A stretch of DNA of 64,000 nucleotides from a virus (IMGVR_UViG_3300045988_133735), one strand, 5' to 3'. Numbered from the stretch's first letter, positions 1,418 to 16,865 are shown. Program-made: numbers and translations. Notes: generated by a model from the letters alone, not told the origin.

Positions 1418-1428
1418 ATTATTGTCTA

Positions 1429-1457
1429 TTGAAAAAATTCCTTACATAGTGTAAAAT
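1429..1457 (+). promoter_or_regulatory. sigma70-like promoter (TTGAAA-N17-TAAAAT, TG-extended)
   Basis: TTGAAA at 1429-1434, a 17-nt spacer ending in gTGt, and TAAAAT at 1452-1457. Confidence 0.5.
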
Positions 1458-1485
1458 ATTATAAAAACACCTTCACTATGTAAGG
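1440..1485. promoter_or_regulatory. perfect 12-bp inverted repeat bridging the -10 region and the RBS (operator or RBS-sequestering hairpin)
   Basis: ccttacatagtg (1440-1451) and cactatgtaagg (1474-1485) are exact reverse complements. The right arm overlaps the RBS taAGGAGtgaatATG. Confidence 0.5.
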
Positions 1486-1492
1486 AGTGAAT

Positions 1493-3246: not shown

Positions 3247-3321
3247 GCTGGTGTAGCTCAGAGGCAGAGCACGGTACTTGTAATGCCGGGGTCGAGATTC
3301 CGAAATTCTCCATCAGCTCCA
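3247..3321 (+). tRNA. tRNA-Thr (anticodon TGT), CCA encoded
   Basis: Hand-folded cloverleaf. Acceptor GCTGGTG/CATCAGC, D arm GCTC..GAGC, anticodon arm CGGTA-CTTGTAA-TGCCG. The T arm is slightly irregular. Confidence 0.7.
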
Positions 3322-3372
3322 TTGAACGGCGGTAGCCGCATTAAAGATTACATATTTTAAAGGAGTAAGATT

Positions 3373-4014
3373 ATGACTACTGAAACTATGACAATTCATC
3401 GCGGTCTGGCAGAGTTGAAGGTTATTGAAGATCGCATCAACAAGCTTCTTCGTGAAGCTAAGTTTTGTGCACCAGCTAAAAAGAGTATGAAGAAGTTGGA
3501 TGGTGTGGATATCGATGAGTTTAAAACAAATGCTCAGTCCGTTTTCGATAAGATCACTGCACTGATTTCAAAGCAGGCAGCACTTAAGCGAGCGATTTCC
3601 GAATCCAACGCAAAGACTTATGTTACTGTGGCCGGGGTCAATTTTACCGTTGCAATGGCAATTTGGATGAATCAGCATGGCATTGATTTCCAGAGTGCAC
3701 TGCTTAATGTAATCGATCGCCAGTACTCTAATGCCACTGCCGTAATTGAAAATGCAAATGCTCGTCTGAGTGATCGTGCTGACGCTTTTGTGAGCGCTAC
3801 GAATTCCGCTTCAGATAAGAACAACATGGATGCTGAGACTCTGAAGGAAATCCGCCAGGATTACATGGATCGCGAGACTATGGCCCTGGTTGATGGTATC
3901 GATGTTAAGAAGGTAAAGAGCGAACTGGCTGATAAGATCGATAAGTTCAAGGCCGAAGTCGATGCGGCACTGTCTGCTTCTAATGCTGTGACTGAGATCA
4001 CGATTGAATACTAA
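3373..4014 (+). CDS. hypothetical coiled-coil protein
   Basis: ORF track. RBS aAGGAGtaagattATG. No family recognised. Confidence 0.65.
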   Translation: MTTETMTIHRGLAELKVIEDRINKLLREAKFCAPAKKSMKKLDGVDIDEFKTNAQSVFDKITALISKQAALKRAISESNAKTYVTVAGVNFTVAMAIWMNQHGIDFQSALLNVIDRQYSNATAVIENANARLSDRADAFVSATNSASDKNNMDAETLKEIRQDYMDRETMALVDGIDVKKVKSELADKIDKFKAEVDAALSASNAVTEITIEY

Positions 4015-4205
4015 GTTGTAACACCGCAAGGTGTCTACATAGTCATTGTTTATCGAAAACGACAAACCGTAATTGTTCGCTTTTGTTTATAGGGACTTGC
4101 TTAAGCGAAATCAAAATATAAAAAGCTAACACCTATATAAAAGTGGCCTTATAAGCCTTCATGATGAAGAACAAGTTTATATTAGATTATAAATAATACT
4201 TGATT

Positions 4206-4277
4206 TTCTGATTTGCTAAATGGTTAAAGCGACAGACAGAAAATCTGTAATTGTAGGTTCGAATCCTGCATCAGAGA
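4206..4277 (+). tRNA. non-canonical tRNA-like gene (GAA anticodon position, but A at position 33)
   Basis: Acceptor TTCTGAT/ATCAGAG (T1.G72). T arm GTAGG-TTCGAAT-CCTGC. Anticodon arm ACAGA-CAGAAAA-TCTGT, which lacks the near-invariant U33. Confidence 0.45.
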
Positions 4278-4551
4278 ACAAAATCGATCAGTAAGCGGAA
4301 TCAACCCAAGGGAAGATACGAGCTGATCAAATTCATCCGGAAAGGTTAAAGTTTACGATTAAAGGTTAAAGGTTGAAAGTTCAAAGCTTAAACTTCTAGC
4401 TAAAGATTAACGTATAACGAATACAGGTCAAAGAATATTAAAATCCATGAGTTTGTGTTTGTGGATCAATTACGTAAGTCCCGTCGTTTACCACATGGCT
4501 GATAAATGGTGAACGCCTTGGCAGGGGCGTAACAATACCTGCCGTTTATAT

Positions 4552-4630
4552 GGAGCGATAGCTTAAAAAGGGAAAAGTGCTGGTGGCTACGATTCACCAG
4601 AGATGCAGGGTTCGAACCCCACTCGCTTCA
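4552..4630 (+). tRNA. tRNA-Arg-like (anticodon ACG), non-canonical geometry
   Basis: Acceptor GGAGCGA/TCGCTTC. Anticodon arm GGTGG-CTACGAT-TCACC, extendable to 7 bp. T loop TTCGAAC, but only 3 WC pairs in the T stem. The D region is long. Confidence 0.45.
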
Positions 4631-4719
4631 AAATTATGTCTACTATTCCTTGTCCTATGTAGCGGGGAGGTACCCCCTGCGAGAATCATAGTAGTGGCAT
4701 AAAAAGGCAAGGTAAATAT

Positions 4720-4794
4720 GGTTCTGTAGCTCAGTCGGTAGAGCAGCGGATTGAAGCTCCGTGTGCGCCTGTTCAATTCAGGCCGGGACCACCA
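4720..4794 (+). tRNA. tRNA-Phe (anticodon GAA), CCA encoded
   Basis: GGTTCTG-TA-GCTCAGTCGGTAGAGC-A-GCGGA-TTGAAGC-TCCGT...GCCTG-TTCAATT-CAGGC-CGGGACC-A-CCA. Confidence 0.85.
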
Positions 4795-5250
4795 ATGTGC
4801 AAGTTGATTTGATGATTGAGTTTGAGTTCATAATTCCCTCCGATTGATAATGCGTTTTCCGTCTGAGATAAATCCACAGACCCAAATGATGTTATCAATG
4901 AAATTTGCAACAGGATTAGCGAGGCAGTCACACTCCTGATCAGGGGTCGATGTAGCAAGCTTGGTCAAACTGCGTGCCCTGACGATGTAAGATCCGCATT
5001 CCGAGCGCAACTGTGCGTGAGTCTCACCAGCTCGAAAACAGTGAGAGGTGAAGGAATAACACTGAAAAACCTTATGTAGCGCGGCTATAACCCGGGAGAG
5101 GCTTGACCCAAAAGGATGATCGAGTTTGAGAACCGCAGTGGATAAGCATATCGCCAATAGTGCTCTGAAGAGTAACGGTAAATGCCGGACGCCTGACCCG
5201 TTAAAGCCAGGACGAGGACCACAGGTGACATCCCTCTGTGGTCGTTATAT
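4795..5250 (+). ncRNA. candidate structured non-coding RNA (class unknown) between tRNA-Phe and tRNA-Tyr
   Basis: About 455 nt with no credible ORF on the transcribed strand. It has several perfect local stems (for example gaccacag/ctgtggtc and tctcac/gtgaga) and a 16-nt direct repeat, gatgatYgagtttgag, at 4811 and 5115. Confidence 0.25.
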
Positions 5251-5338
5251 AGGTCAGTGTGCTGAATGGTTGAAGGCAGCAGGCTGTAAACCTGTGACAC
5301 CAGAAACGTTGTAGGTTCGAATCCTACCTGACCTACCA
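5251..5338 (+). tRNA. tRNA-Tyr (anticodon GTA), long variable arm, CCA encoded
   Basis: Acceptor AGGTCAG/CTGACCT. Anticodon arm GCAGG-CTGTAAA-CCTGT. Long variable arm. T arm GTAGG-TTCGAAT-CCTAC. Confidence 0.85.
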
Positions 5339-5464
5339 AGTAAGTGATTCTTAAATTGCGCAGAACAAAGGATTAGCCTTTTAGGGGCTGTTACTATTAT
5401 AATGGCAGCCCTGATTATCGGTGATGATGCCAACTCGCGAGGGTGCGTAAGCCGACTTTTATAT

Positions 5465-5540
5465 GCGACTGTAGCCAAGTGGTATGGCATACGACTTTTA
5501 ATCGTAAAATCGTCGAGTTCAATTCTCACCAGTCGCACCA
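5465..5540 (+). tRNA. tRNA-Lys (anticodon TTT), CCA encoded, weak T stem
   Basis: Acceptor GCGACTG/CAGTCGC. Anticodon arm TACGA-CTTTTAA-TCGTA. T loop TTCAATT with only 3 WC pairs in the T stem. Confidence 0.6.
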
Positions 5541-5675
5541 CGCGGTAAGTAGTTTTCGAGTTGCAACTATTGTAGCCAGCATTAGCGCGTACGGCTGATG
5601 TGATGGTATTGTTAGTAGTTCTGCGGAAGGAACAAAAACATAAACCGATGGCGGCTGGAAAGACAGCAATCATAT

Positions 5676-5748
5676 AGGCCCATAGCTTAATTGGTTAAAG
5701 TTGCGGTCTCCAAAACCGTCGATTTCCGTTCGAGTCGGAATGGGCTTG
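5676..5748 (+). tRNA. tRNA-Trp (anticodon CCA)
   Basis: Acceptor AGGCCCA/TGGGCTT. Anticodon arm GCGGT-CTCCAAA-ACCGT. T arm TTCCG-TTCGAGT-CGGAA. Confidence 0.8.
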
Positions 5749-5777
5749 CTACATACAAATGACAAGGAGATGATTCT

Positions 5778-6107
5778 ATGAACGTCGTGAAATTCAAACC
5801 AGAGGACTACGCAAAGAGTTCTTGTTCGACTGAATTCTATAAAGCAGTCGGTTTGTTCGACATCATCAAGGCCGGCGCTGTAACAAACGTTCATCAGATG
5901 AAAATCAATCCGAAGACTTACAAGGAAGTAGATGAGAAGCTGTGCTCAAACTGGAAACGGAATAAAGTCACAAAACGGCTTCGACAAGACAAAGCTCAAT
6001 CGATGATCTCATTTGACTGGATGAATTATTCGCCTGTACAAGATGAAATCGTTCCTGAAAATGAAATCTGGTGGGAGACTGCAAATGAAACAGCAGCAGA
6101 CGTATAA
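5778..6107 (+). CDS. hypothetical protein
   Basis: ORF track. RBS acAAGGAGatgattctATG. Confidence 0.6.
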   Translation: MNVVKFKPEDYAKSSCSTEFYKAVGLFDIIKAGAVTNVHQMKINPKTYKEVDEKLCSNWKRNKVTKRLRQDKAQSMISFDWMNYSPVQDEIVPENEIWWETANETAADV

Positions 6108-6258
6108 AGGGCTTTTTGATAGTTGGCACTATGAAGACTGGCCGCATTATCAATATAAGCCAGACAAAAAATTTGATCGTAAATTAGCAAAAGCTCGTCT
6201 AAAACGTATTGAGCTGGAACAAATCAAAAAGGAGATCGAACGTTATGGCAATGATTGA
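6085..6258 (+). CDS. hypothetical small protein
   Basis: Frame of track ORF 6043..6258. The internal ATG 6085 is preferred (MKQQQTYKG...) and overlaps the end of the previous gene. Confidence 0.45.
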   Translation: MKQQQTYKGLFDSWHYEDWPHYQYKPDKKFDRKLAKARLKRIELEQIKKEIERYGND

Positions 6259-6529
6259 TCCGCACGATGATGACTTCGGTGTCATTTGTAATTGTGCTGT
6301 TCGATACGCAGTCGGGCGCAGAACATATATGCCTAGTCTTGTGATCGATTTCATTACACCGCATCTGAGCGAGTTGACAGATAAAACGCTATGGTGCTTT
6401 CAGCGAGATCTATATCAACGTCTGGATGAAGGGTTTGATTTTGGAGATGAATTTGAGCTTCAAAACTGGATGAGCTTTCTGGAAGATGTTGATAAAGAGA
6501 TCGAGAAAAGAAAAACAGAGGGCGAATAA
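6245..6529 (+). CDS. hypothetical protein
   Basis: Frame of track ORF 6209..6529. ATG 6245 is preferred (RBS aAGGAGatcgaacgttATG). Confidence 0.55.
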   Translation: MAMIDPHDDDFGVICNCAVRYAVGRRTYMPSLVIDFITPHLSELTDKTLWCFQRDLYQRLDEGFDFGDEFELQNWMSFLEDVDKEIEKRKTEGE

Positions 6530-6539
6530 CCCTCTTTTA
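6517..6539 (+). terminator. rho-independent terminator
   Basis: agaggg-cgaataa-ccctct hairpin running into tttt. It overlaps the stop codon of the 6245..6529 gene. Confidence 0.55.
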
Positions 6540-6542
6540 TAT

Positions 6543-6590
6543 GGCAGTGTGTCCGAGTGGTTTAAGGAAATAGTCTCACAAATTAGAATT
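6543..6590 (+). pseudogene. 5'-half tRNA fragment (type II-like acceptor plus D arm) with no matching 3' half
   Basis: GGCAGTG-TG-TCCGAGTGGTTTAAGGA resembles the acceptor and D arm of Ser/Leu-type tRNAs. No T arm and no CACTGCC acceptor 3' strand were found downstream. Confidence 0.35.
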
Positions 6591-6667
6591 TTATCATTCG
6601 CGCCAAGGACAATTGATTTGAAATTTAATAGAAAGGGGTTAGCAATTGCGCTAATAACAGGTGGTTA

Positions 6668-7087
6668 ATGAATGAAGTATGTAAAGTGTGTGGCAAAAAA
6701 CTTAAGCAAGGGAATTCGACGGGGTATTGCCATGATTGTCTAGTGAAACATCGGCAAGAAGAGAAATTAAAAAGTTGGCTATCAACTGGTAAAACAGGAT
6801 ATACAGTTGACACAACAATCAGAGGAGTTATTCGAAATTATATACTTGATGAACAAGAACATAAATGTGCTATTTGCGGTTTGCCAGATTGGTGGAATGG
6901 TGGGCAGTTGCATTTTATCTTGGACCATATAGATGGGGATGCGGGTAACTCTTCAAGAGGAAATTTAAGATTGATTTGCCCAAATTGTGATAGCCAACTT
7001 GATACATACAAGTCTCGAAATAAAAATTCTGCCAGAAGACTAAGAAAAGAATTTCTAAAAAATAATACAGCAAAAACAATTACATAA
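6668..7087 (+). CDS. HNH endonuclease (free-standing, inside the tRNA array)
   Basis: CAICG...HFILDHIDGDAGNSSRGNLRLICPNCDSQLD carries the HNH/zinc-finger signature. N-terminal CxxC...CxxC. Confidence 0.75.
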   Translation: MNEVCKVCGKKLKQGNSTGYCHDCLVKHRQEEKLKSWLSTGKTGYTVDTTIRGVIRNYILDEQEHKCAICGLPDWWNGGQLHFILDHIDGDAGNSSRGNLRLICPNCDSQLDTYKSRNKNSARRLRKEFLKNNTAKTIT

Positions 7088-7092
7088 TATAC

Positions 7093-7187
7093 GGCTAGTT
7101 ACCGAAGTGGTCATAACGGCCTGGACTTGAAATCCTGTGTGTCGGCTTGAATCCGGCGCGAGAGTTCGAATCTCTCACTAGCCGCCA
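7093..7187 (+). tRNA. tRNA-Ser (anticodon TGA), long variable arm, CCA encoded
   Basis: Acceptor GGCTAGT/ACTAGCC. Anticodon loop CTTGAAA, with one T.T mismatch in the stem. Long variable arm. T arm GAGAG-TTCGAAT-CTCTC. Confidence 0.75.
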
Positions 7188-7294
7188 ATCCAGATTGAAT
7201 TAGGAATCACTTATGGCGGAGAGTTAAATCCACCTACCCAGGAGACAAGATAATGCTTTCAATCGGCAAAAAGGCTTAGGTCTCTATTTTATAT

Positions 7295-7366
7295 GGCCTG
7301 TTAGTCAAGAGGTGAAGACGCTGCCTTTTCACGGCGGAAACATCGGTTCGATTCCGGTACGGGTCA
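7295..7366 (+). tRNA. tRNA-Glu (anticodon TTC)
   Basis: Acceptor GGCCTGT/ACGGGTC. Anticodon arm CTGCC-TTTTCAC-GGCGG. T arm ATCGG-TTCGATT-CCGGT. Confidence 0.8.
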
Positions 7367-7399
7367 TTTTTTGAAAATTAAATATTATGAGGTATCAAA

Positions 7400-7630
7400 A
7401 TGAAAACAAGTGATTGGATCTCTGTAAAAACCTTCTTACCACCTAAAGAAGATAAGAAATGGGCTTCGAGTGATGTCGTTTGGGTTTATGACGAAGAATG
7501 TGGACAGCGCAAAGGTTATCTTGATGATGACAACCAGTGGTGTGATGCAAATGAATGCTGGTATTTAAATCATGTTACACATTGGATGCCTCTGCCGGAT
7601 GACCCGCCAAAGGAGAAAAACGAATTATGA
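7400..7630 (+). CDS. DUF551-like phage protein
   Basis: WISVKTFLPP...VTHWMPLPDDPP matches the characteristic DUF551 termini. The stop overlaps the next start (ATGA). Confidence 0.65.
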   Translation: MKTSDWISVKTFLPPKEDKKWASSDVVWVYDEECGQRKGYLDDDNQWCDANECWYLNHVTHWMPLPDDPPKEKNEL

Positions 7631-8379
7631 AAACAACGAAGAAAGATTGGATCTATCGTGTGATTCTTCTGATTCTGTTGGCGATTATCTGGGACATTGG
7701 CGCGGCTTTGACTTCGCCAATTTTTGTTCCCCAGAAAGGCGCTGTGTTTCGTGAATTCTTTCTGCTGATTCAGAACGGAACGATGTTGAAGGCGTTTCGA
7801 TATTCATTGATTCGCATCACAGCAGCAGCTCTTCTGAGTGCCGGTGTCGCAGTTCCACTTGGTTGTCTGATGAAAATCTGTCATCCGATTCAAAACCTGT
7901 TGTATCCGGCGATTCGAGCGATGAGATTCCTACCGGTGACCGCTTTCTATCCACTGCTTACGATGTGGTTCGGAATTGGTGAGAAGATGAAAATCGCCTT
8001 CTTGTTTGTAGCCAGCTTCGTGTTTATGTTGCCAAGTGTATTGATTGCTTTGGATGATGTTTGCGATGACGTGATCGAGGCAGCTAGTATTGACGGGGCA
8101 GGGAAGTTTAACACGGTCACACGAATTATTCTTCCGATGGCAGCACCGTCCATCTGTCAATCCTTTGCTACAATGTACGCCATTGGTTGGACATATATCG
8201 CGGTAGCGGAAACGGTGAATGCAAAGTATGGTATCGGGTATCTGATCTATACTTCGTCTGCTCGTGGTCGCACAACGTTGGTATTTGTTGGAATTCTGGC
8301 GATTGTGATTTTCAGTATTCTATTTGACTGGATTACGAGCGTCTGTATCAAGAAGATTTTTAAGTGGAAATTTTCATAA
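7627..8379 (+). CDS. ABC transporter permease, NitT/TauT (SsuC/TauC-like) family
   Basis: Six hydrophobic segments. EAA-loop signature VIEAASIDGAGKFNTVTRIILPMAAPSI. LLTMWFGIGEKMKI motif typical of SsuC/TauC. Confidence 0.8.
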   Translation: MKTTKKDWIYRVILLILLAIIWDIGAALTSPIFVPQKGAVFREFFLLIQNGTMLKAFRYSLIRITAAALLSAGVAVPLGCLMKICHPIQNLLYPAIRAMRFLPVTAFYPLLTMWFGIGEKMKIAFLFVASFVFMLPSVLIALDDVCDDVIEAASIDGAGKFNTVTRIILPMAAPSICQSFATMYAIGWTYIAVAETVNAKYGIGYLIYTSSARGRTTLVFVGILAIVIFSILFDWITSVCIKKIFKWKFS

Positions 8380-8388
8380 GGAGGACAT

Positions 8389-8565
8389 ATGACACACGAA
8401 ATCGAAATAGATGGCTGTCTGAACGTTCCAACCACTGTCAGTTTGAATGACGTTGTAGATGAATTCTTAGCATTTATAGAAAATCGCGGCTGGTATTTTG
8501 GTGGTGGCTTTAATGAATTTAAAGACGACCACTATGAATCAATAGATGTCAGAGAAGAAGATTAA
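8389..8565 (+). CDS. small hypothetical protein (58 aa; below the ORF-track cutoff)
   Basis: Hand-translated MTHEIEIDGCLNV...SIDVREED*. Strong RBS taAGGAGGacatATG. Confidence 0.5.
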   Translation: MTHEIEIDGCLNVPTTVSLNDVVDEFLAFIENRGWYFGGGFNEFKDDHYESIDVREED

Positions 8566-8578
8566 AGAGGAGAAAATT

Positions 8579-9181
8579 ATGGCAAAGAAAAGTTTTTTCG
8601 AGAAGCTCGGTCTTGTTGAGTCGGAAGTAACTTCTGAGTATGAAATGCCAGAAGTAGCAGACGTGAATGTTGGTGTCTCTTTTGGACCTAATATCGAACA
8701 GCCGACTCCTGTGCAGGCCGAAGTTCCGGAGGGTGACACGATTGACATCGGAGCTGTCTACGAAGCCAATAGTATGAATCCTGCCGACTCTGTTACTGTC
8801 TACAAAATCAAGGACGTGATTGATACATTCCCGTCTGAGATGCCAACCAAGACAAAGCGAGCAACAGTTAAGAACCTGATGATGACGCTGGGTTATGATG
8901 CGGTCGCAATTATGTCCGACGCAGAGCAGCGCAAAGAGCTTCTTCGGACGGTTGGTAATGACAAGATGAATGCGTTGTTTGACGAAATGAAGAGCAACGA
9001 CCAGCAGATTGAATCCATGAAGGAACAGATTGAAGCGCTGACTAATCGCAACGTTGAAGCTGGTGCGGCAATTGAAAAGATCACCAATACAGTTCAGGAC
9101 GAACTCAAGATGATTTCTTCTATTGAGGAATTTATCGAAGAGGATAAGACGGAGCCCGCCGGGAAGGAAGGTGCTCAGTAA
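8579..9181 (+). CDS. hypothetical protein with C-terminal coiled coil, translationally coupled to the PspA-like gene
   Basis: Frame of track ORF 8546..9181. ATG 8579 is preferred (aaGAGGAGaaaattATG). Its stop TAA overlaps the next ATG (TAATG). Confidence 0.6.
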   Translation: MAKKSFFEKLGLVESEVTSEYEMPEVADVNVGVSFGPNIEQPTPVQAEVPEGDTIDIGAVYEANSMNPADSVTVYKIKDVIDTFPSEMPTKTKRATVKNLMMTLGYDAVAIMSDAEQRKELLRTVGNDKMNALFDEMKSNDQQIESMKEQIEALTNRNVEAGAAIEKITNTVQDELKMISSIEEFIEEDKTEPAGKEGAQ

Positions 9182-10011
9182 TGTTTTCTTTTACAATTCC
9201 TGAGTTTACGCTTATCTGTGTTGGTGTTGTTGCGGTTGGCAGTTTGATTCTATTTCCGTCATTCCGCCAGCAGATTAAAGCATTAGCCGGTGGTTTCTTA
9301 CAGGTTTTCGTGCAGGATACAGCCAAAACTCCAGATGGTGCCCGTGCTATCTATGCTCAGAAGATCGATGAGATGACAAAGAAATACACAGACGCCTGCA
9401 ATACTCTGCGAGACCTGACTGGAAAGCTCAAGACGATTCAAGATAACTATGCTGTCTGTCAGAAGCAGGCAAAGACATATGATGAACAATCAAAGGCAGC
9501 CATGAGTCACGGCGATGTGGAATCTGCACGAACCTACGCTCGACTGTTACAGGAGGAAATCGATAAAGCTGAGAATCTGGCTGATCAGTTCCAGAAGATG
9601 AAGCCTGCTGCGGAAGAAGTCAAGGCAATCAAGGAAAAGCTTGAAAATCAGTTGGCAGCCCTGAAGCGTGAGAGCAAGGATGTTGTGGCTGAGTTAAAGG
9701 CGAACGAGCAGGTTGCTGATGTATATTCCAATCTGGACCGTCTGCGTGCATCTACCGGCACTGATAAAATGCTCAATGCTACTCGCGATGGACTTCAGGA
9801 GAGTCGTGAAAAGGCAGCGGGCGCAAAGGTTTTGTATCAGACCAGTCGAGAGGGAAAGCTGGACAGGGCGGACGCAAACACTGCTGATTATAAAGTGAGT
9901 TCGTATTTAGAGAGTCTGAAAAAGAGCAATCCGAATGTGGTTACATATAATATTCCTGACCTGAATGCGTTTTCTAAGTCGTCTGGATTGAATACTCAGT
10001 CCAAGAAATAA
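9181..10011 (+). CDS. PspA/IM30 (ESCRT-III-superfamily)-like coiled-coil protein with an N-terminal transmembrane segment
   Basis: N-terminus FTLICVGVVAVGSLILFPSF. The rest aligns by eye with the PspA layout (..IDEM..., ..AMSHGDVESARTYARLLQEEI.. versus AL..G.EDLAR.AL, then long heptad helices). Confidence 0.5.
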   Translation: MFSFTIPEFTLICVGVVAVGSLILFPSFRQQIKALAGGFLQVFVQDTAKTPDGARAIYAQKIDEMTKKYTDACNTLRDLTGKLKTIQDNYAVCQKQAKTYDEQSKAAMSHGDVESARTYARLLQEEIDKAENLADQFQKMKPAAEEVKAIKEKLENQLAALKRESKDVVAELKANEQVADVYSNLDRLRASTGTDKMLNATRDGLQESREKAAGAKVLYQTSREGKLDRADANTADYKVSSYLESLKKSNPNVVTYNIPDLNAFSKSSGLNTQSKK

Positions 10012-10040
10012 AATCAAAAAATTAAATAGGAGAGAATAAC

Positions 10041-10262
10041 ATGTCTAAGTTCAAATTGACTAAGGCTGGCCGCGCTGTTGTTGGCGTGGTGCTTGCTGTG
10101 GCTGTTGCTGTTGGTGTTGTTGGCGGCATTAAGGGCGGCGTGATCAAGTTCGATAAAAAGAAACCGACCACCTCAAAGCCGAGCACTTCTATCAGTACAG
10201 ATAAGCCGTCTAATTCCGCTGGGGACGACACGATCAATCTGTCTCTGGATGAGTGGGCAGGT
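10041..10262 (+). CDS. exon 1 of a split gene: TM anchor plus start of an NMT1-type substrate-binding domain
   Basis: TM helix VVGVVLAVAVAVGVVGGI and a Ser/Thr/Pro linker. It ends ...INLSLDEWAG at the predicted 5' splice site. The first intron codon is TAA. Confidence 0.65.
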
Positions 10263-11503
10263 TAAAGTTAGCCCCTTCATATGAGTAATCATGTGATGGA
10301 ACTTCTTTGAATTGCTGGAACAACTCAACCTGATTTTGTTAGGAGATTAGGTTGCCCTAAAGCTGATTGAGCTACAGTGCAATGATGAAATATGCATAAG
10401 TACGAATGCGGCGAAAGCAGAAAAAATCAATCAGATGACATAAGCTGAAATAAAACCATATTGCAAAATATGTGCTAAGTGTTTTCAACAATGGGAAATC
10501 AGCAGCCAAGCCTCGAATAGAGGAAGGTTCAACGACTAAGATCCTTTGAATTCGTAAAGGACTGTGAAGAAGCACCCTGCAATATGGGTGGTGATATAGT
10601 CTATTCTACATTGAAAGATGTAGGGATAAAGGATTGGATAGGAGCGTTGAAGATGAATAAATGTATCTATAAAATCACGAACAATATCAATGGTAAAATC
10701 TATATCGGTCAAACAAATAATCTAAAAAGGCGACTTCAAGAACATAAGCACGATAAGAGAATGAACCATCCCATACATAATGCTATTGTAAAATATGGTT
10801 GGGAAAATTTCTCTGTAGAAGTCTTATATTATGGAGATTGTTATAACGGGTTAGAAAAATATTTTATTCGTCAATATCGATCAAACGAAAAGGAGTTTGG
10901 ATATAATATTCAAAACGGTGGACAAGATAGCGGTGGAGAAAACAATCCTGTCGCCATCTTGAAACAAACAGAGATCGATAATATGATTCAGGATCTAATA
11001 AATACTGATCTCTCTTATGATGAGATTGCTCAAAAATACGGAGTAAATCAAAAATATGTTACAAATGTAAATAAGGGCGCATCTTGGAGAGATACAGATT
11101 TATATGAATATCCGCTTCGTAGAATGATAAGAAGAATGGATGACGAATCAATAAATGAAGTTATTAAATTGCTTCAAAATCCAGATATACCATTTGACGA
11201 TATTGAAAAACTGACTGGTGTAAAACGATATACAATTAGAGATATAAATAATGGCACCCATTGGCGCAGACCAAACGTTTCCTATCCGATAAGGGAATTC
11301 GGGTTGCCATCAAAAACTCGTGATAAAATTATAGACTTTTTAAAATCTTCAGAACTTACCGTACAAAAAATAGCAAACGAATGTGGTATTGATCGCGGAG
11401 AAGTATACAGAGTTAATTCTGGTCGATATCATAGGCGAATCGATTGTACATATCCAATTAGAAATCTATCCACCAAGCGTAACGAACTTGGTCAATATGA
11501 AAG
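10263..11503 (+). mobile_element. group I intron (td-like, subgroup IA) carrying a GIY-YIG homing endonuclease ORF
   Basis: Conserved core strings ggttcAACGACTAag (10526-10540) and GATATAGTC (10593-10601), as in the T4 td intron. P9 hairpin ctacat-tgaaag-atgtag. The guide AAGTTAGCC (10665-10673 minus 400, that is 10265-10273) pairs over 9 contiguous positions with the ligated junction GGT|TGGCTT. G at 11503. Confidence 0.7.
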
Positions 11504-11519
11504 TGGCTTTCAATCCTAA
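10653..11519 (+). CDS. GIY-YIG homing endonuclease (intron-encoded)
   Basis: MNKCIYKITNNINGKIYIGQTNNLKRRLQEHK is the GIY-(10)-YIG motif. The C-terminal half has repeated NUMOD/HTH-like segments. The track start 10584 is rejected because it lies in intron core P7/P9. The last 16 nt overlap predicted exon 2. Confidence 0.8.
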   Translation: MNKCIYKITNNINGKIYIGQTNNLKRRLQEHKHDKRMNHPIHNAIVKYGWENFSVEVLYYGDCYNGLEKYFIRQYRSNEKEFGYNIQNGGQDSGGENNPVAILKQTEIDNMIQDLINTDLSYDEIAQKYGVNQKYVTNVNKGASWRDTDLYEYPLRRMIRRMDDESINEVIKLLQNPDIPFDDIEKLTGVKRYTIRDINNGTHWRRPNVSYPIREFGLPSKTRDKIIDFLKSSELTVQKIANECGIDRGEVYRVNSGRYHRRIDCTYPIRNLSTKRNELGQYESGFQS

Positions 11520-12868
11520 CGGCAAATGGTGGTCTTACTACTCAGCCCGGTTCTGTGTTTGATCAGCTTGGCATCAAGGTGAATATCAATGTCATCAACG
11601 ATGCGACTGAGTCCAGTAACGCACTAATCTCTGGTGATCTGCAGGCCGCTGGTTATACTACGAATCGCGTAGCATTCCTGTCTCAGAAGTTTACTGACGC
11701 TGGTAAGAATGTCATCATGCCGATTTTTACCAACTACAGCTATGGCGGTGACGGTATCATCGCTTCTACTAAGTTCGCTGATGTGAATTCGTGGGTCAAT
11801 GCCAAAATCGGTGTCCCTGAGTTCTCTGAGGCTGAGACTCTGGTTGCTTGGTTCGTTAATAATTCCAGTCTGTCTGATGCTGACAAGGCAACTATCATGA
11901 ACAATCTGATTATGTTCGGCACCGCAGACGATACCGCTAAGGCATATTTCGCTGGTCAGATTGATGTTGCTGCAACATGGGAGCCCTATTTGACTCAGGC
12001 CAAGACTTACACCAATAGTACTGTCGTGTTTGATACGAAGTCATCCTCCTCTCTGGTTATGGATGGCATTGTGTTTGATGCAGATTGGGCAGCGGCTCAT
12101 GAAGATACCGTTAAGAAGTTCGTTCAGGGCATTCTGATGTCTTATGACCAGCCTATCAATCACAATGCAGCTCGTGAAGTGTTCCCGATGTACTCTACTT
12201 CTTCTGATGCCGATATTGATGCGACTTATGCAAATGCTAAGATGGCAAGCTGGAAGGACAACTACAATATTCTGAATGATACTGCTCCGATGATTTATAA
12301 CCAGATGTGCGACATTTGGGAGGGTCTTGGTGAAACCGTTAATCGTGATCTCGTAAATACGCTGTTTGATACTACATATATCGATGCGCTCAAGAGTGAT
12401 TTCAAGTCTACTTCTGCTGCAAATGCTACTACGAAAGTAACTGTGAGCGATGAGACTCGTGCAAACATCACTCAGCAGGTCACTGGAAATCTGGACTATG
12501 ATTCGATGCTGAGCAAGACTGCGAATGTAACTTTTGTGCCGGATTCTTCCGTGTTTACCGATCAGGCCAGCGCTGCTTCTGTTCTGAACGATTTCGTGAA
12601 TATCGCTAAGACTCTGGATGGCACTATGATTGTTATCAACGGTAATATTAATGCGAATAACCAGACCGAGTTTGGCGTGCAGCTTTCTGCTAACCGTGCT
12701 CAGACCGTTGCAAATTATCTGGCATCTCAGGGTATTGATCAGAATCGACTAATTGTCACTGGTTCCGGCAATGCAAAGTATCAGGCTGATAAGGCGGCTG
12801 GCACTTTGAGTAGTGATGCAAGCGTGTATCAGTCCACGGATATCAGTTTCATGCGAATCGAGAACTGA
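11504..12868 (+). CDS. exon 2 of the split gene: NMT1/SsuA-like substrate-binding domain fused to a C-terminal OmpA-like domain
   Basis: The frame is open from 11501. WLSILTANGGLTTQPGSVFDQLGIKV... continues the DxWxGW motif of SsuA/NMT1 binding proteins. C-terminus ...FGVQLSANRAQTVANYLASQGIDQNRLIVTGSGN matches the OmpA_C pattern (LS..RA..V..YL...G+...R+...G.G). Confidence 0.65.
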   Translation, partial: WLSILTANGGLTTQPGSVFDQLGIKVNINVINDATESSNALISGDLQAAGYTTNRVAFLSQKFTDAGKNVIMPIFTNYSYGGDGIIASTKFADVNSWVNAKIGVPEFSEAETLVAWFVNNSSLSDADKATIMNNLIMFGTADDTAKAYFAGQIDVAATWEPYLTQAKTYTNSTVVFDTKSSSSLVMDGIVFDADWAAAHEDTVKKFVQGILMSYDQPINHNAAREVFPMYSTSSDADIDATYANAKMASWKDNYNILNDTAPMIYNQMCDIWEGLGETVNRDLVNTLFDTTYIDALKSDFKSTSAANATTKVTVSDETRANITQQVTGNLDYDSMLSKTANVTFVPDSSVFTDQASAASVLNDFVNIAKTLDGTMIVINGNINANNQTEFGVQLSANRAQTVANYLASQGIDQNRLIVTGSGNAKYQADKAAGTLSSDASVYQSTDISFMRIEN

Positions 12869-12879
12869 GGTGATTCAGA

Positions 12880-12984
12880 TTGATCTGGATTGAAATCAGT
12901 AAAGCAATTTGGATTGTGGGCGGATTGATGTTAGCTTCTTTTGCGGCTGGCTATCTCTTCCATGGTCCAACTCCTAAGATTTAA
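12880..12984 (+). CDS. possible 34-aa single-pass membrane peptide
   Basis: TTG start 8 nt after GAGGTG. Hand translation MIWIEISKAIWIVGGLMLASFAAGYLFHGPTPKI*. Short, therefore uncertain. Confidence 0.3.
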   Translation: MIWIEISKAIWIVGGLMLASFAAGYLFHGPTPKI

Positions 12985-13029
12985 AACTCCCGGCGGTGCT
13001 CAGGTAGCACTGGGTGCCGCCTTATATAA

Positions 13030-13104
13030 TGCGTTGTAGCCAAGCGGTAAAGGCCGGGAGCTTTGACCTCCCTATCGTGTGTTCAACTCACACCAGCGCA
13101 ACCA
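13030..13104 (+). tRNA. tRNA-Gln (anticodon TTG), U1-A72, CCA encoded
   Basis: Acceptor TGCGTTG/CAGCGCA. Anticodon arm GGGAG-CTTTGAC-CTCCC. T arm GTGTG-TTCAACT-CACAC. Confidence 0.8.
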
Positions 13105-13138
13105 GAAAATATATATTAAAATGGAAGGAGAAAGCCAA

Positions 13139-13318
13139 ATGACATCTCCAAAAGATTTAGAAGTTGCATTATTGGATTTTATTAATGAATGCACAACGAA
13201 CGAAGATAGTTGCGACGACTGTATGTATCGCGAATTTTGCATTAGATTCTATACTCCACACTGCGACTCCCCAAATGAGTGGGAGATTTTAGAAAAGTCA
13301 GGAGGTATTCCATGCTAA
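13139..13318 (+). CDS. hypothetical small Cys-containing protein
   Basis: Frame of track ORF 13079..13318, whose 5' part overlaps tRNA-Gln. ATG 13139 is preferred (GGAAGGAGaaagccaaATG). Confidence 0.55.
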   Translation: MTSPKDLEVALLDFINECTTNEDSCDDCMYREFCIRFYTPHCDSPNEWEILEKSGGIPC

Positions 13319-13473
13319 CAGTAGAACAAATCAAGTCTATCTATAAAGAACTCGTAGCTGTTTGCGTTGAAAGAAGCGGAAACGGACTAGACTGTTCTGG
13401 ATGCAAATACGAAAACAACTGTGATGATATATTGAAAGAGGTGTTTAAACTTGAGTGTTTACATGACAGGTGA
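13312..13473 (+). CDS. hypothetical small protein
   Basis: Frame of track ORF 13279..13473. ATG 13312 follows cAGGAGGtattcc. Confidence 0.5.
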   Translation: MLTVEQIKSIYKELVAVCVERSGNGLDCSGCKYENNCDDILKEVFKLECLHDR

Positions 13474-14182
13474 TATTCATGGTAATCCAAGTCGGTTTTA
13501 TGATTTGAAATATTTCTGTCTCGACCATCCTGACATTGAATGGGTTGTATGTTTGGGTGATGTGGGTCTGAATTACTATGGCAAGGATTATCCAAGAGAA
13601 ATGTTCATCAAAAATGTTGCCGATTCAATTCCTGCAAAACTGTTTTGTATCCACGGCAACCATGAACGTCGGCCGAGTGAGACAGAAGGGTATCAAGAAA
13701 TCGAAGTTACAGATGGTGCAATTCGTGGTCCGATGCTGTGGAGTCACGAGCATCCTAACCAGTATTTTGCGATTGATGGTGCGATTTATGTAATTCAAAC
13801 ATCGGAACGAACATTGAATGCGCTTGTTTGCGGTGGCGCTTATTCGGTTGACAAATATTACCGATTGCAACGCGGTTGGAATTGGTGGCCAGATGAGCAG
13901 CCAAGCGAACTTACAAAAGGTCTCGTGCGTCTTATGGCAACCAGATATCCAATTGATATTATGTTGACCCATACTTGCCCGCTGCGGTTTGAACCTAAAG
14001 AACTGTTCTTGAACGGCATTGATCAGAGTACGGTCGATACATCAACAGAAGAGTTTTTTGATGACCTTTATGAGCAATTCCCGGCGGATCATAAGCCGAT
14101 GTGGTATTTTGGCCACTTTCATGGAGATAAATACACTGACGATTATGTGATGTTGTATCGAGACATCATAGAACTGAAGTGA
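13463..14182 (+). CDS. metallophosphoesterase (calcineurin-like Ser/Thr phosphatase family)
   Basis: Motifs MTGDIHGN, CLGDVGLNYYG and IHGNHERR (GDxHG / GDxxDR-like / GNHE). Confidence 0.75.
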   Translation: MTGDIHGNPSRFYDLKYFCLDHPDIEWVVCLGDVGLNYYGKDYPREMFIKNVADSIPAKLFCIHGNHERRPSETEGYQEIEVTDGAIRGPMLWSHEHPNQYFAIDGAIYVIQTSERTLNALVCGGAYSVDKYYRLQRGWNWWPDEQPSELTKGLVRLMATRYPIDIMLTHTCPLRFEPKELFLNGIDQSTVDTSTEEFFDDLYEQFPADHKPMWYFGHFHGDKYTDDYVMLYRDIIELK

Positions 14183-14286
14183 GTTTATAAATAAAAAAGG
14201 AAAGGGGAACAGAGATGCTGTATGGACGAGCTTCTCCCAATTTGATGCGATAATAAGCGAAAATCAAATTAGATAGGAGAAATAAT

Positions 14287-14544
14287 ATGCTTTGCAATTT
14301 TTGTGGTAAGACGCTGGACCCCTGCGATGAAGCAAATCTGGGTGATTTGACTGTACGGTTCTTTTATGGAAGCAAACGCGACGGAGACCGGATGAAGTTT
14401 TCCATGTGTTCTGATTGTGTTGATAAGCTAACGGACGAATTTATTGCCCGTTGTAAGCATAAGCCGACAATTGAAGCAGGTGGCATCCCTAATAGTAGTA
14501 TCCCTGTCTGGGAGTCTAAAACCACTGAAGAAATCGATTACTAA
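14287..14544 (+). CDS. hypothetical zinc-ribbon-like protein
   Basis: CNFCG...CSDC pairs. RBS atAGGAGaaataatATG. Confidence 0.55.
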   Translation: MLCNFCGKTLDPCDEANLGDLTVRFFYGSKRDGDRMKFSMCSDCVDKLTDEFIARCKHKPTIEAGGIPNSSIPVWESKTTEEIDY

Positions 14545-14568
14545 TGTTGATATACATAGGAGGTACAT

Positions 14569-15681
14569 ATGGCAGAGAAGAACATTTACCCTCGTTTTAA
14601 TTTTTGTGGTGATATCGTCATTCCGAAGCGGAACAACCCTTGGGTAAAGCGCGATACTTATAACAACTCTGAAAAGATTAGCCTGAATATGGGCATCAAG
14701 AACGGCATGAATTGCGTTTATGTGTCTGCTCAGGGTTTCAAGAATGACATCATTAAGACCAAGAATGTCGACAACGAGGATATCGAGATTGATTGGGACG
14801 ATCGTTTCGATAAGGACACTGTCGATATGGTGTCTAGTATGCGAAAATATGTTGTGAATCTGGGCGAGCGCAAGGAGTTCATTACCGCATGGGATATGAT
14901 CGAGTATCTGGAATCTGCTCTGACTGGTTATGCTGAGCCGATCGTTGTGGCTGGTATTTACAAGCTGCGTCCCGGCACTGGTGCATATAAGGATCGCATT
15001 TTTGAGGAGTTTCAGATTCAGAATGTGTATGCAGCAGTTGACGGCAAAGACACTCCGCATCTAACTATGAATATGGATCTGTATTATGACAAGAACAGTA
15101 TCGATCGTTCCGAGGAGAAGTCTGAAGGTAAGATCTTCATGAATTGCTACACTCCGATGTGGTCGGCCGCAGATGCCGCTCAGAAGATGTTTCCTGTGAG
15201 CGCCGTGTTTAACACTTCTGTTTTGGATATGACCAAGGAGAAGCACAAGCGGATTTATGACCTGAAGATGCGCTACCTCGAAACCAAGTCCAAGAATCCC
15301 GTTCATATGAACTGGGCAATCGGTGTTGTGAATGGCGCAGAAGAGAAGGAGTTCGATGAGAGCTGCCTGACTGATGTCCAGCGTGAATTCATCGAGGCTG
15401 GTCTGAATAAACTGGAGGATTTCAAGCCGCGTGGGAATATCTATGGCGAGAAGGTTCATGAACTGCGCTTAATCAAGCCGCTGATTAAGGATGAATTCAA
15501 GGAGTGCATGACCGCCGCAGACTCTGGCATGACCGCTCGCGAGTTTGAGGATATGATTTATTCTCCGTCTGAGGACGAAACCGTTGACGACATGGTGAAG
15601 AAATCCTACAAGAAGCCTGCAACAAAGGCTGCTAAGCCTACTGAGGTGGAAGAGGACGACGGTATTGATACTCTGTTCTAA
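14569..15681 (+). CDS. hypothetical protein, candidate phage single-stranded-DNA-binding protein
   Basis: The acidic C-terminal tail ...EVEEDDGIDTLF resembles the SSB tip DDDIPF. It lies directly upstream of the recombinase-like ATPase. No OB-fold motif could be verified by eye. Confidence 0.4.
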   Translation: MAEKNIYPRFNFCGDIVIPKRNNPWVKRDTYNNSEKISLNMGIKNGMNCVYVSAQGFKNDIIKTKNVDNEDIEIDWDDRFDKDTVDMVSSMRKYVVNLGERKEFITAWDMIEYLESALTGYAEPIVVAGIYKLRPGTGAYKDRIFEEFQIQNVYAAVDGKDTPHLTMNMDLYYDKNSIDRSEEKSEGKIFMNCYTPMWSAADAAQKMFPVSAVFNTSVLDMTKEKHKRIYDLKMRYLETKSKNPVHMNWAIGVVNGAEEKEFDESCLTDVQREFIEAGLNKLEDFKPRGNIYGEKVHELRLIKPLIKDEFKECMTAADSGMTAREFEDMIYSPSEDETVDDMVKKSYKKPATKAAKPTEVEEDDGIDTLF

Positions 15682-15734
15682 TTTTTTGCACACACAAACA
15701 GGACTTAAAAATACTTGAATAAGGAGAATGCATA

Positions 15735-16865
15735 ATGGCGCGTAAATATGGCAAGAAAGTTGATATTAGTTTAAACCCTCTTGATTATAGCCTTTATCTT
15801 ATGGGTGAGTCAGGTATTGGTAAAACTACCGTAATCAAACAGATGTGCGAAAAGCTTGTTGGAGATGAAGGGTATCTGTTTTTGACTTGCGGCAAAGAGT
15901 CTGATCGAGCAACTATTCAAGGCATTGAATGTGAACCGATTTGGGATTGGGAAAAGTTTGATGACGTCACTCTTGATATTATCGAAAACCGTTTTTCTGA
16001 TTATCAGGATTTGAAAGTCGTTGTCATTGATACCATCGACGAACTTATGAAAATGGCAGAAGATGAAACCCTGCGAATCTGGAATCGCGATAATCCGGAT
16101 AAAAGGGCTAAGACCTTCCGTGCAGCTTTTAACGGATTCTCTGGACCATTTGATAAAGCAGTCGAGCTGGTAACAGATAGAATGTGGGAATTAAAGCGTG
16201 TTGGTGTTAGTCCGATTGTTATCGGACACACCAAGAAGACTGATATTACTGACCCGGTTACTCTGACTACTTATTCGATGTTGTCTACTAATATGGAAAA
16301 GCGTTATTTCAATGCTTTGAAAAACAAAGTTGATATCGTTGGTGTCGCATATATTGATCGTGACATTGATCAAGTGAAAACAGGTCGTAAAAACGTCGTA
16401 ACAAAGAAAGAAGAAGTTATTGGCCGTGTCAGGGAAGAGCGTCGAGTGATTTGTTTCCGTGACGATAATTTCTCTGTTGATGCTAAGAGTCGGTTCGCGG
16501 ATATTGTCGATCGAATTCCTCTGAACGCAGACGAACTTATCAAAGCCCTAACAGACGCAATTAAGGCAGAACACGATAAGAGCGGTCGTTCGTATGAAGC
16601 TGACCTGAAGAAGCAGGCAGCTGAGAAGAAAGAGGTTGAATCCGTGCAGGCCGAGCGTGCAAAACAGTATGTCGGGGCAGCTCAGGATGAAGAGGATGAA
16701 CAGTATCGTGCCGAGTGGATTAGTGCAATTCAGAATAACTATAAGAGCGCATCTGATGATGTAAAAGCGAAGGTTGCTGAAGTGCGTAACAACATCGGTA
16801 AGAAGTTCTCAGATCCGGAGTTCCCGATTGCAGAACTGAAGAAAGTTTATTCTTTTGTCGTATAA
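15735..16865 (+). CDS. P-loop ATPase, AAA_24 / Sak4-like recombination protein
   Basis: Walker A LMGESGIGKTT and Walker B VVVIDTIDEL. The position beside helicase and primase is typical of Sak4-like proteins. Confidence 0.6.
   Translation: MARKYGKKVDISLNPLDYSLYLMGESGIGKTTVIKQMCEKLVGDEGYLFLTCGKESDRATIQGIECEPIWDWEKFDDVTLDIIENRFSDYQDLKVVVIDTIDELMKMAEDETLRIWNRDNPDKRAKTFRAAFNGFSGPFDKAVELVTDRMWELKRVGVSPIVIGHTKKTDITDPVTLTTYSMLSTNMEKRYFNALKNKVDIVGVAYIDRDIDQVKTGRKNVVTKKEEVIGRVREERRVICFRDDNFSVDAKSRFADIVDRIPLNADELIKALTDAIKAEHDKSGRSYEADLKKQAAEKKEVESVQAERAKQYVGAAQDEEDEQYRAEWISAIQNNYKSASDDVKAKVAEVRNNIGKKFSDPEFPIAELKKVYSFVV

Follow-up and report, generated by a model that had tools for sequence, protein, structure and literature searches.

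A phage-borne PspA and ABC importer gene module that has apparently lost its own ATPase gene

Composition of the locus

The virus IMGVR_UViG_3300045988_133735 carries, in the stretch of 64,000 nucleotides analysed here (hereafter the window), a set of envelope genes located between a tRNA-Glu and a tRNA-Gln gene (Table 1). The set encodes the permease of a NitT/TauT-type ATP-binding cassette (ABC) importer, a small protein of 58 amino acids (aa), a coiled-coil protein, a PspA/IM30-like protein with a transmembrane (TM) anchor, and a solute-binding protein (SBP) fused to an OmpA-like domain (SBP::OmpA), the gene of which is split by a group I intron. The module proper extends from 7627 to 12868, with all genes on the plus strand and packed in an operon-like manner. 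A scan for promoters and terminators gave counts near the shuffle expectation and was uninformative. For comparison, 163 loci from IMG/VR, GTDB genomes and metagenome assemblies were surveyed, which are referred to by L-numbers.

An earlier note on this DNA, made from the sequence alone, had placed six open reading frames (ORFs) between the two tRNAs. The ORFs and both tRNAs were indeed found at those positions. The DUF551 ORF, however, cannot be retained as a member: it occurs in some relatives only (it is absent from L001, L018 and L064) and is a variable neighbour outside the conserved module. A seventh ORF, encoding the homing endonuclease of the intron, had been missed. The note's reading of the individual products held up throughout, i.e., a NitT/TauT permease with an EAA loop, a split gene with an exactly located junction, binding and OmpA-like domains in its product, an N-terminal TM helix followed by a PspA/IM30-like layout, and a TAATG overlap coupling the PspA gene to the gene of a protein with no family match, for which a long helix is predicted. 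It had also seen no ABC ATPase between 7400 and 13000, and this absence extends to the whole window.

Table 1. Features of the envelope module and its boundaries in the window (all positions counted from the first nucleotide of the window)
Feature	Position	Strand	Evidence and remarks
tRNA-Glu (UUC)	7294..7367	+	ARAGORN; Rfam tRNA 58.1 bits; upstream boundary in the clade of the window
DUF551 small protein	7400..7630	+	Pfam DUF551, E 7.5e-8; stop overlaps permease start (ATGA)
NitT/TauT-type ABC importer permease, 250 aa	7627..8379	+	Pfam BPD_transp_1, E 5e-20
58-aa small protein	8389..8565	+	In the slot held by the ABC ATPase gene in sister lineages
Coiled-coil protein, 200 aa, predicted cytoplasmic	8579..9181	+	Stop overlaps PspA start (TAATG)
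TM-anchored PspA/IM30 protein (ESCRT-III superfamily), 276 aa	9181..10011	+	Pfam PspA_IM30 (PF04012)
SBP::OmpA, exon 1	10041..10262	+	TM anchor, low-complexity linker, start of binding domain (...INLSLDEWAG)
Group I intron, 1241 nt	10263..11503	+	Rfam RF00028; ribozyme core ~10263-10623, endonuclease ORF in 3' part
GIY-YIG homing endonuclease, 288 aa	10653..11519	+	Pfam GIY-YIG, E 6e-10; PHROG 7168
SBP::OmpA, exon 2	11504..12868	+	TauA/SsuA/NMT1-like binding domain, linker, C-terminal OmpA-like domain
tRNA-Gln (UUG)	13030..13104	+	ARAGORN and Rfam; downstream boundary in the clade of the window

The permease belongs to PHROG 6743, a family of unknown function, and its coupling loop is a canonical EAA loop (VIEAASIDGAGKFNTVTRIILP), in which the motif EAASIDGAGKFNTVTRIILP fits EAA-x3-G-x9-I-x-LP. 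Among the NCBIfam models SaoP, TauC and SsuC come nearest, and since all scores fall far under the equivalog cut-offs, no substrate can be inferred.

The spliced SBP::OmpA product has 528 aa, with a TM helix predicted by hydropathy scan at residues 12-30, and belongs to PHROG 25518 (E 1e-142), likewise of unknown function; more than 1,300 relatives were found in the databases. The region 11555-12868 matches Pfam NMT1 (E 9.5e-6) and OmpA (PF00691; 44.3 bits versus 27.2). For structural comparison we used the AlphaFold2 (AF2) model of the closest homologue, P0001, which is 97% identical (pLDDT 75.5). In Foldseek searches the modelled binding domain is closest to TauA (6ssy, E 3e-14, target TM-score 0.71), with further matches to Thi5, PqqT, SsuA, ThiY and CmpA/NrtA, and thus has a fold of the TauA/SsuA type. 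The profile of the OmpA-like end matches solved OmpA-like domains with E 2e-13; a sequence search of the PDB with the profile of the entire fusion recovered OmpA-like domains alone and no match to the binding domain.

The PspA-like protein scores 35.4 bits against the PspA_IM30 cut-off of 33.9, a marginal value for the single sequence, with residues 56-248 aligned to profile positions 26-216. A profile of ten homologues matches the solved Vipp1/PspA chains with E-values from 1e-6 to 8e-5, from Vipp1 residues 10-14 to ~177, an alignment that spans Vipp1 helices alpha1-alpha5. On these sequence grounds membership of the PspA/IM30 family is sound; the corresponding phage family (PHROG 33389, E 2e-45) is of unknown function. 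A TM helix is predicted by hydropathy scan at residues 9-27, N-terminal to an alpha0-like segment, so that instead of the peripheral anchoring of PspA/IM30 by alpha0 only, an integral membrane protein is predicted here.

The start of the coiled-coil protein at 8579 is backed by homologues of 200 aa. It has a conserved N-terminal FFEKLGLVE, a linker that is acidic and disordered, a small domain of helices and a single helix of ~83 residues; the AF2 model (pLDDT 74) likewise shows disorder in the acidic region, together with three short helices and a long one, and places helices at 57-104 and 108-190. The family comprises 211 clusters and has no Pfam domain. Pfam searches of the protein gave weak coiled-coil noise only, and the hydropathy scan gave no TM helix. 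The gene always adjoins that of the PspA-like protein, with which it is translationally coupled. We considered whether the coiled-coil protein is a second ESCRT-III/PspA protein and, on the evidence available, rejected this (hhalign probability of 1.4% against the PspA-like protein; no PDB or Foldseek match).

Loss of the ATPase gene

The window encodes no recognisable ATPase for its permease. An LSGGQ-type signature is missing from every frame of the 64 kb, the only Walker A motifs, two in number, are those of an AAA_24 protein and a DnaB-like helicase, and the profile of the ATPase that the module possesses elsewhere found no match in a six-frame translation of the window; nor was an ATPase found in the flanks (~8 kb) of 61 close relatives. 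By contrast, sister phage lineages, prophages and chromosomal loci have a standard ABC ATPase of 203-225 aa between the permease and coiled-coil genes, with Walker A (GESGCGKTT), signature (LSGGMRQR), Walker B and H-loop all intact. At ~50% SBP identity (P0100), for instance, the order is permease, ABC_tran ATPase (203 aa), a 176-aa protein, PspA_IM30 and NMT1+OmpA. The neighbourhood survey that the earlier note had proposed thus bears out the co-occurrence of permease, PspA-like protein and SBP::OmpA: 91 of the 163 loci have the order permease, ATPase, coiled-coil, PspA and SBP::OmpA, and 64 lack the ATPase. The full five-gene order was present in 79 of the 80 best IMG/VR viral contigs recovered by the ATPase profile, and also in L002-L004, L070-L074, L077, L078 and L161. 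Hence the description of the module as ATPase-less is right for the clade of the window, but not in general.

The ATPase-less loci (~64) are exactly the surveyed loci with an SBP at least 65% identical to that of the window; L161, at 60%, retains the ATPase. This distribution agrees with a single loss at the root of the clade, and the ATPase gene was apparently lost once in this lineage. (A precomputed gene table made L161 appear as a permease-less variant, which we rejected: an opposite-strand ORF had been called, and the permease ORF lies at 3309-4064.) In L162 and L163 (65%) and L051 (71%) the permease, coiled-coil, PspA and SBP genes are contiguous with nothing in the ATPase slot, and in the group with 87-99% SBP identity the slot is taken by one or two copies of the 58-aa ORF, or by a 72-aa and a 58-aa ORF.

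We also considered whether the 58-aa ORF is a remnant of the ATPase gene and rejected this, as it has no similarity to the ATPase of the module, belongs to a separate family found in other contexts, and is missing from L051, L162 and L163. Elsewhere in the ATPase-less clade it is present in one or two copies, often in tandem (second copies in L021-L068). The protein has no Pfam, PHROG or NCBIfam match and no TM helix by hydropathy scan. An exhaustive profile search placed it in a family of 200 representative clusters of proteins of 40-130 aa, some of them fused to HD_4 or HicB-like domains with the 58-aa unit at the C-terminus; one relative has a weak YggL_50S_bp match. We interpret it as a probable filler or accessory gene, possibly YggL-like, rather than a stand-in for the ATPase.

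The EAA coupling helix is the ATPase-docking part of type I ABC importer permeases, and we know of no role for it besides docking. In the ATPase-bearing loci this helix reads (D/E)T(G/A)xTxG(M/F/V) in 89 of 89 readable permeases (two loci were unreadable), among them two chromosomal permeases only 35-36% identical to that of the window. In the ATPase-less loci it reads EAAS(I/V)(D/E)GA in all 59 readable cases, with five loci unreadable. Judging from the sequences, the coupling helix in the clade of the window is thus changed to the textbook EAA consensus (in short, EAAS.DGA). A shift to the family consensus followed by strict conservation is the pattern expected from adaptation to a different, generic ATPase and not the pattern expected from loss of function.

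The remaining genes of the ATPase-less module are under purifying selection, which is strong for the permease and the SBP. The ratio of nonsynonymous to synonymous substitutions (dN/dS; pairwise Nei-Gojobori within the ATPase-less clade, mean dS ~0.6) is 0.044 for the permease, 0.045 for the SBP, 0.07-0.09 for the PspA gene and 0.12 for the coiled-coil gene; for the 58-aa ORF it is 0.26. The permease is no more relaxed here than in ATPase-bearing phages, for which noisy estimates of 0.16-0.21 were obtained. All module ORFs are intact in ~60 relatives.

Distribution and genomic setting

The genomes that bear the module belong to Oscillospiraceae, Lachnospiraceae and other Clostridia or their viruses: besides phage contigs, carriers include prophages in isolates of Oscillospiraceae and Lachnospiraceae and a few chromosomal loci of Clostridia. 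The PspA and coiled-coil genes accompany the transporter in all complete loci of the module type (91 with and 64 without ATPase), the exception being the divergent chromosomal locus L076. In L075, from a metagenome-assembled genome (MAG) of Clostridiales, the order is rearranged to coiled-coil, PspA, SBP, permease and ATPase with all five genes kept, flanked by EngA, GpsA, a patatin-like phospholipase, VanW, Pta and AckA; L076 and L078 have metabolic flanks. A profile search of the flanking ORFs of L075, L076 and L078 found no additional PspA-like or coiled-coil-like genes. L076 itself (9526-16549, a Clostridia MAG from sheep gut) has two SBP::OmpA paralogues that flank a permease, an ATPase and a 225-aa protein with a hydrophobic N-terminus and a helical acidic C-terminal part, in which no similarity to PspA could be detected; next comes an SBP_bac_11::VWA fusion protein.

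In the virus studied here the module lies between an early region upstream (PemK/MazF-like toxin, MrpR-like recombinase, SLT transglycosylase and a tRNA array) and replication genes downstream (AAA_24, DnaB-like, PD-(D/E)XK and PolIII-alpha). Relatives likewise have it upstream of AAA_24/PDDEXK/PolIII-alpha replication genes, whether or not their module includes the ATPase, and the neighbourhood of L161 matches too. The ATPase-bearing locus of the isolate Hominicoprocola fusiformis has NAD salvage genes, methylases, PD-(D/E)XK, a primase-helicase, PolIII-alpha and ThyX nearby; H. fusiformis CLA-AA-H269 and Dysosmobacter segnis BX15 are cultivable lysogens with the ATPase-bearing form. That the neighbourhood is the same with and without the ATPase implies an old backbone component of these large phages rather than a recent island. 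Accordingly, the earlier note's idea of a phage cargo island is not supported in the sense of a recent insertion. The tRNA-Glu and tRNA-Gln genes lie at matching positions in L001, L005, L008 and L022, and among the loci checked this bracket is restricted to the clade of the window.

Group I intron and homing endonuclease

The insertion in the SBP::OmpA gene is a group I intron that is predicted to be self-splicing and to excise in frame. The RF00028 match covers 10253-10623 with 56 bits against a gathering score of 50 (E 4e-13), obtained in E-value mode on the local stretch; a default Rfam gathering run with fast filters over 1-64000 did not report it. The U at 10262 ends the 5' exon and the G at 11503 ends the intron, and joining 10262 to 11504 gives ...LSLDEWAG followed in frame by WLSILTANGG.... 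The spliced product is colinear with the intron-less alleles of L001, L008, L010, MT835556.1 (...DEWAGWLSCITANGG...) and many IMG/VR contigs.

The endonuclease encoded in the intron matches the NCBIfam model TIGR01453, 'group I intron endonuclease', with 77.5 bits against 56.05. Its ORF extends into the downstream exon: the final 16 nt including the stop (11504-11519) lie in exon 2 in a frame different from that of the SBP gene, so that the C-terminus of the endonuclease and the host protein share those bases. Beside the junction, exon 2 reads TGGCTTTCAATCCTAACG in alleles with the intron and TGGCTGAGTTGCGTTACG in intron-less alleles.

The intron has a patchy distribution. It is carried by four of the 61 ATPase-less viral loci (L041, L044, L056 and L062; L044 and L056 have a 1241-nt insert identical to that of the window) and by 11 of the 80 ATPase-bearing viral loci (L099, L100, L107-L110, L114, L117-L119 and L157). 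The site is shared, in the same codon after ...LSLDEW(A/I)G, with a homologous core and GIY-YIG endonuclease even in SBP alleles that are only ~50% identical in protein sequence. The insert of L108 has no Rfam match even in E-value mode, but aligns to the intron core of the window and carries a homologous endonuclease. The intron is a selfish element separate from the module, residing where the SBP gene is most strongly conserved. In its position in a highly conserved coding stretch, its GIY-YIG ORF and its patchy presence among close relatives it parallels the T4 td intron with I-TevI. It differs in that the host gene encodes an envelope protein and not one of nucleotide metabolism or a polymerase, and in the endonuclease ORF that runs 16 nt into the downstream exon.

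Comparison with known systems

The earlier note did not recognise the gene combination as a described system. A similar operon has, however, been listed by Ravi et al. 2024 (mSystems, PMC11237479; section 18, Table S3), with the order PspA, SIG+PBPB+OmpA, TM permease, ABC-ATPase, TM+Snf7 and AAA+, the example being OGG56892.1 from the bacterial chromosome of Candidatus Handelsmanbacteria. These authors propose that the OmpA domain binds the wall while the binding domain handles a solute, and that membrane remodelling is thereby linked to solute transport (PMC11237479). The gene combination is thus already on record, as a computational note. The loci described here resemble that operon in having an ESCRT-III-superfamily gene beside an SBP::OmpA and an ABC permease, in more than 140 related loci and with an ATPase in the sister lineages, and in that one ESCRT-III-like protein is TM-anchored; this likeness is one of architecture only. 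Unlike the present module with its single recognisable PspA and unrelated coiled-coil protein, the operon of Ravi et al. pairs a soluble PspA with a TM+Snf7, both ESCRT-III-like, and adds a two-domain AAA+ ATPase. Neither the module itself nor the flanking genes, judged by their precomputed Pfam families, include an AAA+ ATPase. Further differences are that the copies described here are mostly located on large phages or prophages and that the lineage of the window also lacks the ABC ATPase. Beyond Ravi et al., our literature search found nothing on phage-encoded PspA or phage PspA–ABC modules, although its coverage was partial and this is weak evidence of absence. What is new here is the mostly phage-borne setting and the ATPase-less clade with its re-tooled permease; the architecture itself is already in the literature.

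The transporter part shares with the NitT/TauT importers (TauABC, SsuABC, NrtABCD/CmpABCD and ThiXYZ) a BPD_transp_1 permease with an EAA loop, a TauA/SsuA/NMT1 fold and, in sister lineages, the ATPase. It departs from them by the missing ATPase gene, by an SBP that is TM-anchored and OmpA-fused, and by the constant linkage to PspA and coiled-coil genes. The earlier note had considered that homologous loci might always include a standard ATPase and sit in ordinary sulfonate or nitrate operons, which would make this a plain transporter fragment. Homologues with an ATPase do exist (91 loci), but none sits in an operon of this kind.

With the Psp and Lia systems (PspA with PspBC; LiaH with LiaI) and with Vipp1/IM30 the module has in common a PspA/IM30-family protein at the cytoplasmic face of the membrane (here by prediction). 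In contrast to these systems, this protein has a TM helix of its own, is phage-encoded and is linked to an ABC transporter, and no PspB, PspC, PspF, LiaI or LiaF partners are present. Cyanophage PstS is a case in which a phage supplies part of an ABC importer and host components do the rest. Here, unlike in that case, the phage supplies both permease and SBP with only the ATPase missing, and the ancestral phage form is complete.

Possible functions of the module

The explanation that we favour, tentatively and with a confidence that stays a little below even, is that the gene set of the window is a phage-borne, derived copy of a conserved five-gene envelope module that acts as a membrane-maintenance and import device and borrows a host ATPase. 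On the outside, the SBP would be held between membrane and wall by its TM anchor and its OmpA-like domain and would hand a small ligand to the permease. On the inside, a polymer of the TM-tethered PspA protein and its coiled-coil partner would act on this same patch of membrane, either stabilising or remodelling it. Ancestrally, the ATPase of the module would power the transporter; in the lineage of the window the permease would most likely dock a host ATPase of the NitT/TauT family instead. For this phage of ~145 kb, the probable gain during infection would be a host membrane that stays intact and energised, possibly together with the supply of one solute. The idea of an envelope-directed phage module, as raised in the earlier note, thus appears reasonable, and the use of a host ATPase, which it had offered as one option, would be part of the reading favoured here too.

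Several observations weigh against this explanation. Gene order is the only evidence for a physical coupling of the PspA and coiled-coil proteins to the transporter, and the coiled-coil protein has no recognisable relatives by PDB sequence or Foldseek search. If the ATPase was lost once, the perfect correlation between motif and ATPase amounts to one observation, not 150. The search for an ATPase took in the 64 kb window and the ~8 kb flanks of relatives, out of a genome of ~145 kb. The dN/dS values of the ATPase-bearing set are noisy from saturation. Finally, the OmpA-like end in the ATPase-less clade has Asn for Asp (GNIN versus GxTD) and YQS versus NRR; more distant relatives have GNTD...NRR, and the Arg motif LSxxRA is retained (LSANRAQTV). 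In work on A. baumannii OmpA, the Asp of GxTD and the Arg of LSxxRA reportedly contact diaminopimelate in solved complexes. Given the GNIN and YQS substitutions, peptidoglycan binding is assumed here; wall binding by the OmpA-like domain seems plausible.

Among the alternatives, it is possible, if unlikely, that the locus encodes a plain auxiliary nutrient importer, by which the phage would raise the uptake of one solute (e.g., taurine, a sulfonate, nitrate or a vitamin precursor) much as cyanophages do with PstS, working with a host ATPase, to which the PspA and coiled-coil genes are merely linked. The binding domain is the most conserved part of the module (49-52% identity across clades, versus 18-32% for PspA and 20-23% for the coiled-coil protein), which together with the TauA/SsuA-type fold, the canonical EAA loop and the presence of metabolic genes, among them NAD-salvage genes, close to the module in relatives would suit such an importer. 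A merely incidental linkage is difficult to reconcile with the PspA and coiled-coil genes adjoining the transporter in all 91 + 64 loci of the module type, including the rearranged L075, with the translational coupling of these two genes and the operon-like arrangement of the whole set, and with an SBP that, unlike in ordinary importers, is always fused to OmpA. We consider it rather unlikely that the module is an ATP-independent scaffold or sensor, in which a wall-stapled SBP and the permease position the PspA polymer and nothing is transported. A successful clade of at least 64 loci does without the ATPase while everything else in the module is constrained, and PspA-family proteins are recruited by membrane partners, as in LiaI-LiaH and PspBC-PspA; yet the ATPase-docking helix did not drift, but moved to the family consensus and is invariant in the clade.

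A function in superinfection exclusion, defence or counter-defence, with SBP::OmpA blocking rivals or the PspA polymer protecting against pore-formers or a premature holin, appears just as doubtful as a transport-free scaffold. The module is common in prophages with integrase and PemK/MazF-like genes, its products are predicted to be located at membrane and wall, and PspA-family proteins counter membrane leakage. Against this stand the chromosomal copies among housekeeping genes, the strongly conserved solute-binding fold, which a simple blocking protein would not need, and the PADLOC-DB defence models, none of which matched a component beyond generic coiled-coil (JetC, LmuB) and P-loop similarity. 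That the locus is a decaying transporter fragment, acquired by chance and heading for loss, is very improbable. The missing ATPase gene, the interruption of the SBP gene by an intron and the unrelated small ORF in the ATPase gap might convey this impression, but the ORFs are intact in ~60 relatives with dN/dS of 0.04-0.12 at dS ~0.6, the intron is predicted to be removed in frame, and the module has a fixed place in the phage backbone.

The favoured explanation, a membrane-maintenance and import device using a host ATPase, has a bolder version, in which large phages of Clostridia would carry a TM-anchored machine of ESCRT-III type with a coiled-coil adaptor and a wall-stapled importer that, its own motor given up, is driven by the host ATPase through the re-engineered coupling helix, serving membrane repair and counter-defence. 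We regard this version as unlikely. If true, it would prevent the membrane of the infected cell from leaking and preserve its energised state when, for instance, abortive-infection effectors form pores or a holin acts early, and would constitute a phage membrane-repair and counter-defence system of a kind hitherto undescribed.

PspA/IM30 is the bacterial branch of the ESCRT-III membrane-repair family, and to our knowledge its recruiters and regulators outside Proteobacteria and Bacillus are largely unknown. Here a PspA protein is tied, by gene linkage, to a defined, putatively wall-anchored ABC transporter on at least 140 IMG/VR contigs of large gut phages, and this wide spread points to phage-run membrane maintenance in abundant gut Clostridia. 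The ATPase-less clade is a natural experiment on two questions, i.e., whether an importer permease can swap its ATPase partner, and whether the PspA-linked function needs transport at all. The practical value lies in a small, testable gene set.

Neighbouring genes

Genes of NAD+ salvage and synthesis are located near the module in ATPase-bearing prophages (L002 18601-21584 and L070 415-3526), namely nicotinamidase-like, NAPRTase, NMNAT-like, NAD synthase and PRPP synthetase-like genes. They are consistent with NAD+ pathways reported in large gut phages (PMC11662467). Further genes of membrane organisation, namely Band_7 (stomatin/flotillin-like) and LemA genes, lie a few kb from the module in L003/L004 (4068-4946) and L162 (8793-9350); Ravi et al. 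2024 also connect Band-7 proteins to PspA (PMC11237479).

In the 5' part of the window (1001-2557), ahead of the tRNA array, are ORFs for a PemK/MazF-like toxin and an MrpR-like recombinase, both kept in relatives (L005); their conservation suggests a temperate or plasmid-like lifestyle. Upstream of the module there are nine tRNA genes (3247-7367), including two copies of tRNA-Phe(GAA) and an 81-nt tRNA-Arg(ACG) with an Rfam score of only 31.8 bits. A putative HNH/Endonuclease VII-like ORF (6668-7087) is located between tRNA-Trp and tRNA-Ser. The tRNA content varies among the close relatives L005, L008 and L022. The array of close relatives also contains a tRNA with the anticodon CUA (L001 507-584 and L022 4556-4630), which is absent from the window; ARAGORN labels it 'Pyl', and it may possibly be an amber suppressor.

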